Shown piece after piece: positions 32,708-34,411 of a DNA stretch of 64,000 bases (the stretch's first letter is position 1; every line of letters starts with the position of its first letter). The translations under genes were made by a program, and so were the position numbers. Origin of the DNA: a virus; the UHGV virus genome UHGV-1366990; one strand, given 5' to 3'. Under the pieces are notes generated by a model. That model did no database searches. It was not told the DNA's origin and was given only the letters and a program-made list of their open reading frames with translations.

Positions 32708-33277
32708 TCAGCCTTTGAAGTTAATCGGTTTCTGAATACCAGCGTCGAACGCGGCCTGGGTACGGGTATCACTCACCACCTGGCAGGTCTTGTCAAGGTC
32801 GATACGCGGGTAGCCGAACATGCCAGCAATCAACGAACCAGGGAACTGAGCCAGCTTGGTTTCGTATATTGTGCAGATATCCAGCTTCTTGGTCTGGCTG
32901 ATGCGGAATTCATCACGCCCAGAACTGATCACCACCTGGATCTCTTTGTACAGGCTGGAATCGAACTGAATATTCTGCTCCTGGATCCACTGCATGACGG
33001 CCTTGGAACCATCAGCGCCATAACGCCCTTCGAACGTGCCTTTGATCACTTCCTTCAGGCCGTCTTTATACATGTCAGGAATCTGCGCCGTCTCCTGAAC
33101 TTTGAGCGTGTAGTTGCTCAGGTAGTTCTCGGAGTCTTTGTTGAACTTCTTGACCTGCTGCTCAGTGCGGTTGAAGTCGTTGAAGTAGCTGATGACTGTG
33201 CCAATGCCGAGAATCACTACGCCCAGCAAAGCCAAACCAACTATCCAACCTGTTGCGATACCCTTAGATTGAGACAT
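32708..33277 (-). CDS. LemA-family membrane protein (tentative)
   Basis: N-terminal TM helix; C-terminal KKLDICTIYETKLAQFPGSLIAGMFGYP resembles the LemA signature RKDYNDTVREYNQKIRQFPANIVAGMFGF. SD AAAGAGGAAG. Confidence 0.5.
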   Translation of the reverse strand: MSQSKGIATGWIVGLALLGVVILGIGTVISYFNDFNRTEQQVKKFNKDSENYLSNYTLKVQETAQIPDMYKDGLKEVIKGTFEGRYGADGSKAVMQWIQEQNIQFDSSLYKEIQVVISSGRDEFRISQTKKLDICTIYETKLAQFPGSLIAGMFGYPRIDLDKTCQVVSDTRTQAAFDAGIQKPINFKG

Positions 33278-33295
33278 TCTTACTTCCTCTTTTGA

Positions 33296-34411
33296 TTAAA
33301 AATTAAACGGATAACGACGACGGCCACCATTGTACTCCATTCGCTGTAATATGAAAATTGCGGTGAACGGCAGACAGCCTAGCAGAACAACAATCACAAC
33401 TTCCCAGGTCTTGAGTTCCCGCCACTTCAGGTACTCCATTTCCTTCATCTCAACGCGGTTGTAGCCTTTGGTGATGTTAGCGACAACATCAGCCATGACA
33501 CCGACACCCATGTCGTGGCCTGTGAGAGCCATGCCATTGCGAGAATGGAGTTCACGGTTGTGCATACCATCAGCGAACGAAGTGCTCTTGCCCCAGTTGA
33601 TCTTCAGGTCTTTGTTGATGTCGGTCACGACGATAACGTCGTTCTTTTTACCACCATCCCAAGCATAGACCAAGCCCTGGAAGTATTCAACTGGCTGGCC
33701 GGAAGTCACAACCCAGACGATGTTCACCTGCTTGGCTGCGCCCAGCTTCTTCAGGGCATCGTTCAGATAGTCGTTCCAGTATGTGGTCGGTAACGCCAGA
33801 CCAGACACATTCAGTACACGAGTGACGCGATAGTAGTCATAGACTTCGGGATACTTCGGAATCTTGTCTTTGAAGCGCTCAGCAAACTGCTGGTCTGAAC
33901 GAGAGAACAGAGAGTCCTTGTTACCCAGCACATAGTTCATGTAGGAATGCTCACGGGCTGCGGGTTCGCCGATCTGAACCTGCGCCCAGCGCGGGGGCTG
34001 ACCAAGGCCGCGACGATCAATGCGGTCAATCGTCAGATTACCGACAGTCGTCAACACATCCCAGTCCACGTCATATGAATGCTCATAACAGGTGCTGCAA
34101 TGGCGGGTACGGGTGCAGGACTTACTACTGCCGGAGCCAGAGCACGATGTGGTGTAGTAGCAGTTGCATTCATATGAATGCTCACAGCTCACCTTATTCC
34201 GCTCCTTTGCAGTGACGTACCCGTTCAGGATCTCAACATCCCCTGAACTGCCAAGGGAGAACGCAGCATAAGTCCCCGCCTGAATCAGACAGGATAGCAA
34301 CACTACAATCGCGGTCGCTATCAGAGTCTCTTTCGGCTCATGGGTCTTGCGGTGGTAGGTCACAAACAGGATAGCCAGTACCAATGGCACACCAAACAGG
34401 AGGTAGATCAT
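33296..34411 (-). CDS. membrane protein with Cys-rich segment (possible partner of the LemA-like protein)
   Basis: 371 aa; two N-terminal TM helices, Cys-rich stretch CEHSYECNCYYTTSCSGSGSSKSCTRTRHCSTC, C-terminal TM helix. Confidence 0.6.
   Translation of the reverse strand: MIYLLFGVPLVLAILFVTYHRKTHEPKETLIATAIVVLLSCLIQAGTYAAFSLGSSGDVEILNGYVTAKERNKVSCEHSYECNCYYTTSCSGSGSSKSCTRTRHCSTCYEHSYDVDWDVLTTVGNLTIDRIDRRGLGQPPRWAQVQIGEPAAREHSYMNYVLGNKDSLFSRSDQQFAERFKDKIPKYPEVYDYYRVTRVLNVSGLALPTTYWNDYLNDALKKLGAAKQVNIVWVVTSGQPVEYFQGLVYAWDGGKKNDVIVVTDINKDLKINWGKSTSFADGMHNRELHSRNGMALTGHDMGVGVMADVVANITKGYNRVEMKEMEYLKWRELKTWEVVIVVLLGCLPFTAIFILQRMEYNGGRRRYPFNF

Follow-up and report, generated by a model that had tools for sequence, protein, structure and literature searches.

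The viral genome UHGV-1366990 was analyzed as a single stretch of 64,000 nucleotides (nt), referred to here as the window. On its minus strand lie two neighboring genes, one encoding a 371-amino-acid (aa) protein (positions 33296 to 34411) and, downstream of it, one encoding a 189-aa protein (positions 32708 to 33277). Both appear in the list of open reading frames (ORFs) with ATG starts, on the minus strand at the positions given in a preliminary description of this DNA, and both match PHROG families: the 371-aa product matches phrog_2087, which is listed as of unknown function (1.3e-162), and the 189-aa product matches phrog_1383 (5.2e-86). The 18-nt intergenic spacer (33278 to 33295, minus strand) holds the ribosome-binding site of the smaller gene; the Shine-Dalgarno sequence inside it, AAAAGAGGAAGTAAGAATG, was rated good, and AAAAGAGGAAGTAAGA stands ahead of the ATG. 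The two genes are co-transcribed. A 2.3-kb region at this locus shares 97.9% identity with Escherichia phage AV101 and about 90% with Shigella phage Ag3 and has matches in 214 phage records, and the window is a virulent Agtrevirus-type phage of the Ackermannviridae. We report that the two genes represent the LemA/TPM membrane module of bacteria in a strongly diverged form peculiar to phages, in which the 189-aa protein corresponds to LemA and the 371-aa protein to TPM.

The 189-aa protein has a single N-terminal hydrophobic segment at about aa 7 to 31 (nt 33185 to 33259; maximum Kyte-Doolittle hydropathy, 2.56), and its AlphaFold2 (AF2) model is all-helical, with a predicted local distance difference test (pLDDT) score of 82. 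It therefore has the layout expected of LemA, in which an N-terminal anchor or lipobox precedes about 150 aa of helical structure. Against Pfam LemA (PF04011; gathering cutoff, 26.2 bits), the single protein scored a sub-threshold 13.7 bits (E=0.056), with aa 125 to 158, a stretch that takes in the C-terminal motif named in the preliminary description, falling on profile positions 98 to 131, and sub-threshold matches were found in 9 of 53 relatives (best E, 0.0016). Using a profile of the 189-aa family, hmmsearch matched PDB entry 2ETD, a LemA crystal structure, along its full length with an E value of 2.4e-4, aligning aa 29 to 159 with chain residues 9 to 156. An hhalign comparison of the same profile with 12 canonical LemA sequences, taken from plasmids, gave a probability of 96.2% and an E value of 2.2e-9 over 136 columns. 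Removal of the transmembrane (TM) helix left a probability of 86.6% and an E value of 4.5e-6, and reversed and column-permuted controls gave E values of 0.04 to 0.75. In these profile comparisons the LemA-homologous region spans aa 23 to 158 (32804 to 33211, minus strand) and includes the C-terminal motif FPGSLIAGMFGYP (aa 145 to 157; 32807 to 32845, minus strand). As judged from the sequences compared, the LemA-like motif is beyond chance.

A hidden Markov model (HMM) search with the 189-aa family returned 1,584 clusters (50% identity) at an E value of 1e-3 or below and 1,077 at 1e-10 or below. The family is self-contained, in that the search does not run into the bacterial LemA family, and it has a central motif of its own, GRYGxDGSKAVMQWIQEQN. 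A Foldseek search of the PDB with the 189-aa model gave no match at an E value of 0.001 or below, which is typical for long-helix proteins. On this profile evidence we place the protein in a divergent branch of the LemA superfamily and not within PF04011. The earlier assignment of a LemA-like protein with an N-terminal anchor is upheld by the profile comparisons and the hydrophobic segment; as a Pfam call it misses the cutoff. The lack of a LemA match had been named as an outcome that would refute the assignment, and at profile level the match was obtained.

The 371-aa partner had been described as a Cys-rich protein with three TM helices, and this is what we found: hydropathy identifies hydrophobic segments at aa 1 to 21, 27 to 54, and 333 to 358, and seven cysteines lie between aa 76 and 108. 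The AF2 model (pLDDT, 89.9; predicted template modeling score, 0.79) comprises two N-terminal TM helices, a beta-rich domain, an alpha/beta domain, and a C-terminal TM helix. From hydropathy and the model, the features (all on the minus strand) run from a TM1-TM2 hairpin, with helices at aa 2 to 20 and 26 to 56 (34244 to 34408), through a Cys/His-rich beta domain that is predicted to be periplasmic (aa 57 to 158; 33938 to 34243) and a TPM-fold domain (aa ~199 to 330; 33422 to 33817), to a C-terminal TM helix (aa 335 to 361; 33329 to 33409) followed by the basic tail GGRRRYPFNF. In the beta domain, residues C76, H78, C82, C90, C99, C108, and H111 are conserved, and C84 and C105 are variable; a search for a known fold matching this domain found none. 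The TPM-fold domain follows the order beta-alpha-beta-alpha-beta-beta-alpha-alpha, has the central four-stranded beta sheet flanked by four helices that defines the TPM fold, and contains the near-invariant motif W-x-GGKKND (aa 251 to 258; 33638 to 33661).

The protein has more than 400 homologs, none of which carries a Pfam domain. A scan with Pfam TPM (PF04536; gathering threshold, 22.1 bits) gave no match to the 371-aa window protein itself. PF04536 is the only Pfam family that its relatives match recurrently, in 11 of 51 cases and always below threshold, and the matches always cover the same region, aa ~206 to 264 on profile positions 12 to 80; the best reached 21.9 bits (relative P0118; E, 1.8e-4; aa 207 to 256 on profile positions 13 to 70). 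The modeled structure makes the 371-aa protein a TPM protein at the fold level. The preliminary description had seen no obvious TPM match in the partner, which holds for the single-sequence scan and fails at the fold level; because PF04536 recurs among the relatives, the pair follows the bacterial LemA-TPM pairing and does not depart from it. When the two proteins were scanned as single sequences against Pfam, NCBIfam, and PADLOC, nothing usable was returned. Weak matches to Spore_III_AF, DUF948, ssl2009, and PADLOC LeoBC (E, 3e-4, in a TM/coiled region) were dismissed as compositional, and a match of the 371-aa family profile to LolA among PDB sequences (E, 2.1) was attributed to chance.

The pairing of the two genes was examined in 80 IMG/VR viral contigs encoding a relative of the 371-aa protein, 78 of them with a complete locus and 2 ending at a contig edge. 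In all 78 complete loci the genes are adjacent and on the same strand, with the 371-aa gene first and the 189-aa gene second, so that the absence of synteny elsewhere, which had been named as grounds for abandoning the pairing, was not what we observed. The spacing is usually no more than about 50 nt, or the genes overlap; in a few loci it reaches up to 1.3 kb. No third conserved gene family was found across the 80 loci, and apparent extra conserved families were antisense shadow ORFs of the pair. Among 50,697 genomes of isolated phages, one protein was found in 486 records and the other in 498, and their breakdowns by host match. The carriers are almost all large virulent phages: Ackermannviridae (including CBA120, Vi01, and AV101), ICP1, Acinetobacter phages of about 103 kb, and Aeromonas T4-like phages, with further cases among T5-like Vibrio, Providencia, and Pectobacterium phages, Sinorhizobium phiM12, Lak megaphages, and the Erwinia, Rak2-like, XacN1, and PaBG jumbo phages. 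Across unrelated phage families the module shares 30 to 47% identity, and its motifs are invariant.

Furthermore, the two proteins occur as natural fusions, a Rosetta-stone case. Six such proteins of 553 to 558 aa were found on metagenomic contigs (P0237 and P0364 to P0368, the latter 57 to 73% identical to P0237), in which about 20 residues link TM3 of the TPM-like part to the LemA TM helix. Given strict co-occurrence and natural fusion, the pair behaves as a single unit. Collections of cellular genomes covering 185,579 bacterial species yielded only 30 loci, mostly on contigs of metagenome-assembled genomes (MAGs), with both genes present in 22 of the 30. The surroundings of two of these loci were inspected and resemble those of phages or mobile elements, with a YqaJ recombinase and a RecA-like gene near one locus and TraG, a secretin, and T2SSE near the other. 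Lone homologs of the 371-aa protein were seen on two high-GC, chromosomal-looking contigs, one from a Kofleriaceae MAG and the other mislabeled "Enterobacteriaceae" (L102, 7776 to 9131; L107, 7851 to 9044); their neighbors encode Ser/Thr kinases, histidine kinases, and a TonB receptor, and a canonical LemA gene was sought beside both homologs and was absent. Twelve pair-bearing contigs (L088, L089, L092 to L098, L101, L109, and L110) had been binned into lineages of the candidate phyla radiation (CPR), namely, Saccharibacteria, Paceibacterota, Kaiserbacteria, Sungiibacteriota, Peribacteria, and SR1. Either CPR bacteria are the hosts of these phages, or phage contigs from small-size filter fractions were binned wrongly.

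Several features bear on which side of the membrane the soluble domains occupy. In the 371-aa protein, the TM1-TM2 loop (HRKTHEPKE) and the C-terminal tail (GGRRRY) are both basic and are therefore predicted, by the positive-inside rule, to be cytoplasmic, which would put aa 57 to 330 in the periplasm. The geometry of the fusions places the LemA-like domain on the same side, so it too is predicted to be periplasmic. In addition, the 189-aa protein has a co-varying cysteine pair, C135 and C165 (32783 to 32875, minus strand), identified from family cysteine counts: 187 of 189 family members have either zero or two cysteines outside the TM helix, and at these two columns both cysteines are present in 94 sequences, neither in 86, and the state is ambiguous in 9. 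This parity and co-variation point to a probable disulfide, a marker of an oxidizing (periplasmic) compartment. The bacterial LemA-TPM pair is also extracytoplasmic, because canonical Pseudomonas LemA, which starts MRKLLILLTTLVALNLSGC, has the lipobox LSGC and the adjoining YgcG-type TPM protein has a hydrophobic N-terminal leader. Both soluble domains of the phage pair are thus predicted to face the periplasm.

The same-strand neighbors of the pair are rIIA (27868 to 30624), genes for DUF7231 and DUF7181 proteins, and genes for an amino acid:DNA transferase (35202 to 36437) and a 5-hydroxymethyldeoxyuridine (5-hmdU) DNA kinase (36995 to 38593); in AV101, rIIB and the DNA polymerase gene likewise lie on the strand of the pair. 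From these surroundings we place the pair within a block of replication, DNA modification, and rII genes, outside the structural and lysis genes. A strong terminator-like hairpin with a 16-bp stem and a T run (34937 to 34972, minus strand) lies upstream and marks a boundary of the transcription unit there; the LIMEstone1 annotation has terminators at the equivalent positions flanking ORF192 to ORF196. This hairpin is directly 3' of a gene for a 55-aa predicted membrane protein (34998 to 35165, minus strand). Two small upstream ORFs of 72 aa (34408 to 34626) and 63 aa (34724 to 34915), both on the minus strand, belong to the same transcription unit as the pair. The 72-aa ORF ends in an ATGA overlap with the start codon of the 371-aa gene; because its family is confined to Ackermannviridae loci, this ORF falls outside the widely conserved module. 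A scan of the region for sigma-70 promoters gave sites no more frequently than in shuffled sequence. The ORF at 36995 to 38593 (minus strand, 532 aa) has a GIY-YIG/SegD-like, homing-endonuclease-like N-terminal half (aa 3 to 227; phrog_314) and the 5-hmdU DNA kinase HMUD2 at aa 236 to 531 (PF18747; E, 3.8e-156). PHROG 15209 matches the fused endonuclease-like/kinase form, and AV101 has two separate, overlapping coding sequences; the 532-aa ORF may be a real in-frame fusion or an artifact of taking the longest ORF.

For a view of the bacterial module, we used 11 plasmid-borne LemA loci. LemA is the first gene in all 11, and the gene after it encodes a YgcG/TPM protein in 5, a DUF2207, HtpX, or DUF3137 protein in 3, and an uncharacterized protein in 3; in Listeria, LemA is paired with the quality-control protease HtpX. 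On three plasmids (L111, L119, and L121), canonical LemA-YgcG/TPM operons stand beside genes for a P-type ATPase, HMA-domain and YHS-domain proteins, CcdA, and DUF5676. These neighborhoods, in a small sample, suggest that LemA-TPM is linked to envelope metal stress. Canonical LemA is also carried by 13 Clostridioides plasmid records, those examined being about 46 to 48 kb. On one such C. difficile plasmid (L115, 1164 to 2518), LemA is followed by a 268-aa uncharacterized protein, with sigma-factor, HNH, and small hypothetical genes around them. The Clostridioides plasmids provide another, independent example of a mobile element carrying LemA.

How might the pair act? The preliminary description had suggested superinfection exclusion, lysis timing, or envelope stress. 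In the explanation that we favor, both products would be co-translated from one operon in the early/middle gene block. The 371-aa product would cross the inner membrane three times and display its Cys/His-rich beta domain and TPM-fold domain in the periplasm, and the 189-aa product would use its one N-terminal helix as an anchor and present its LemA-type helical domain there. Most likely, the two would join in a hetero-complex on the periplasmic side of the inner membrane. Such a complex could serve as a nonenzymatic assembly or maintenance factor that stabilizes or remodels host or phage inner-membrane complexes, and the envelope would in this way stay functional while a large virulent phage completes its long infection cycle. 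We propose this role because TPM analogues assist membrane complexes and because LemA is linked to envelope quality-control genes. TLP18.3, Psb32, and LMTP1 act in photosystem II repair as nonessential auxiliary assembly/repair factors working from the extracytoplasmic side, the role best supported for TPM domains (bioRxiv 10.1101/2024.10.28.620569), and comparative genomics argues for a chaperone-like role of TPM, in which it would help membrane-linked complexes to assemble, and speaks against a phosphatase role (PMC11237479; bioRxiv 10.1101/2025.01.14.632903). Furthermore, membrane stress in a Flavobacterium columnare sppA mutant induces lemA together with a TPM gene (PMC13236525).

Gene structure, LemA homology, the TPM fold, strict co-occurrence, and natural fusion are supported by the evidence, and from these we infer topology, a physical complex, timing, and function. 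The structural part is far more secure than the statement taken whole, that a periplasm-facing LemA/TPM inner-membrane complex assists or maintains membrane complexes during infection; that statement, which reasons by analogy, we consider about evenly balanced. Several points weigh against it. Neither the 189-aa nor the 371-aa protein reaches its Pfam gathering score. With hhalign, the 371-aa family compared with a heterogeneous TPM alignment of eight sequences gave an E value of 0.02 and a probability of 2.4%, and the excised domain compared with the small TPM alignment gave a nonsignificant E value of 0.1; the nonsignificant alignment is still in the expected register, with the strand QVNIVWVV, the W-ending helix, and the GGKKND loop. 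The gene order is inverted with respect to bacterial operons, the TPM-like gene coming first in the phage and LemA first in bacteria. Searches of the literature for phage LemA or TPM proteins returned no paper. The proposed mechanism is drawn from analogy. Finally, the cysteine count of the beta domain is mostly odd and is accompanied by two conserved histidines, which hints at metal or redox chemistry that a chaperone model leaves unexplained.

In a more specific form of the idea, large virulent phages would carry the pair as a device dedicated to envelope maintenance. Here the complex, with its Cys/His-rich domain as a sensor, would bind an inner-membrane machine that all diderm hosts share, such as the respiratory chain, Sec/YidC, or lipid-II/lipopolysaccharide export, and that machine would be kept running or re-tuned after the shut-off of host gene expression. 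We regard this form as rather unlikely.

The early/middle position beside rIIA and rIIB, the predicted inner-membrane, periplasm-facing architecture, and the near restriction of the pair to phages and mobile elements (30 loci in 185,579 bacterial species) would also suit a role in superinfection exclusion or in protection from lysis from without, in which the complex blocks DNA ejection or cell wall degradation by later phages. T4 Imm and Sp are the models for exclusion and for protection from lysis from without, and exclusion proteins are usually narrow in range and fast evolving. The phage module, however, is kept in families with unrelated ejection machineries, from Ackermannviridae to Lak megaphages, and is homologous to a bacterial module of the housekeeping type. 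We therefore consider exclusion unlikely.

The conserved residues of the beta domain raise the question of a periplasmic metal/redox module, in which the Cys/His domain would bind Zn, Cu, or another metal or carry out thiol exchange, with TPM and LemA as its scaffold, and through which the phage would alter envelope metal or redox homeostasis. The five to seven conserved cysteines, mostly odd in number, and the two conserved histidines of this predicted periplasmic domain are consistent with such chemistry, divalent-metal binding and redox-responsive cysteine pairs are known from some TPM proteins (bioRxiv 10.1101/2024.10.28.620569), and plasmid LemA-TPM operons stand beside P-type ATPase, HMA, YHS, and CcdA genes. 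However, bacterial TPM partners have no Cys-rich domain, C90/C99 and C84/C105 face each other across a single two-stranded hairpin in a register that would fit plain structural disulfides, and the sample of plasmid neighborhoods is biased as well as small. As the explanation of the pair, this is quite unlikely, and a metal/redox function may coexist with the assembly/maintenance model.

Lysis control is distinctly unlikely. It would make the LemA-like protein an i-spanin or antiholin and the 371-aa protein a holin-like or regulatory partner that sets the timing or inhibition of lysis. The 189-aa protein does resemble Rz and RI in architecture, with its type II anchor, its Cys pair, and a helical domain that is predicted to be periplasmic; rIIA and rIIB are nearby in the window phage; and members of the 371-aa family give isolated, weak matches to holin families. 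Against this, the pair alone is conserved, with linkage to endolysin, holin, or o-spanin genes in none of the 80 loci; there is no lipoprotein partner; the helical domain is LemA-homologous and the ectodomain of the partner has a TPM fold and not that of holin T; and the rII neighborhood is specific to Ackermannviridae. A review of the Ackermannviridae does not mention holins, spanins, or membrane proteins.

That the 189-aa protein is a virion structural protein, for example, a membrane-inserting ejection protein, as the "virion structural protein" label on PHROG 1383 and on orthologs in many RefSeq NC_ records (including LIMEstone1 ORF195) would have it, is very improbable. In the only primary data that could be traced, the LIMEstone1 virion mass spectrometry, ORF195 is absent from the 39 proteins detected (PMC3296691), and a paper on phage phiD3 was uninformative about the label. 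The gene also lies in the early/middle block outside the structural region, and the protein has a signal-anchor, obligate pairing with a three-TM membrane protein, and LemA homology. Annotation pipelines appear to have spread the label.

The finding matters beyond this locus. LemA (PF04011) and TPM (PF04536) are very widespread families of bacterial membrane proteins, and about 1% of the phage isolates sequenced carry a divergent form of the two as a fixed cassette of two genes. Its carriers include tractable and intensively studied phages, namely, ICP1, CBA120, Vi01, AV101, and Rak2-like jumbo phages, whose knockout and expression systems offer an experimental entry to LemA-TPM at the periplasmic face of the inner membrane. 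About 500 annotations as "hypothetical" or "virion structural" can be replaced by a structural assignment, and the propagated virion label can be flagged as probably wrong. Should the envelope-maintenance proposal be true, it would reveal the cellular function of bacterial LemA-TPM modules.

Among known systems, we compared the pair with phage lysis regulators, with single TPM and LemA proteins, and with the bacterial operons. T4 antiholin RI with holin T, and Rz-type i-spanins, combine a small type II-anchored helical periplasmic protein with a membrane partner that has a globular periplasmic domain. They are architectural analogues only, with no sequence or fold similarity to the phage pair detected, and in contrast to T4 RI/holin T the pair is unlinked to lysis genes and spread much more widely than the T4-like phages. 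The TPM proteins TLP18.3, Psb32, and LMTP1 (PDB 3PW9, 8C7I, and 9H70), together with BA41 and BA42, are extracytoplasmic (lumenal) and membrane anchored, as the phage protein is predicted to be, and their conserved W..G....[ND] loop aligns with the phage W-x-GGKKND. They differ in sharing only 11 to 15% identity with the phage domain, which is set in a three-TM protein beside a Cys-rich domain. The phosphatase or nucleotidase activities reported in vitro for some TPM proteins, and a photosystem-type client, are not known for the phage protein. Thermotoga maritima LemA TM0961 (2ETD) is matched by the family profile across its entire domain, the C-terminal YN..i..FP....A..fGf motif included, but its central segment is replaced in the phage by GRYGxDGSKAVMQWIQEQN.

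The closest likeness is to the bacterial LemA-TPM operons (PF04011 plus PF04536), such as those of Pseudomonas fluorescens pG20 (HTK67_RS00660 to HTK67_RS00670) and Legionella adelaidensis (EL206_RS07790 to EL206_RS07785). In these, as in the phage pair, a gene for an anchored or lipidated helical LemA protein adjoins a gene for a membrane-anchored TPM protein, the two are adjacent and co-directional, and the partner combines a C-terminal TM helix with a TPM-fold domain outside the cytoplasm, a location that is predicted for the phage protein. Unlike bacterial TPM proteins, the phage partner has in addition an N-terminal TM hairpin and the Cys/His-rich beta domain of about 100 aa; it lacks the Gly-rich C-terminal tail, and the phage locus lacks a second TPM gene. 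The phage proteins also fall below the Pfam thresholds of the bacterial families and form separate families that occur almost only in phages. Taken together, these comparisons describe a phage-specific variant that is new, built on a bacterial LemA/TPM module that was already known, and not a new kind of system.

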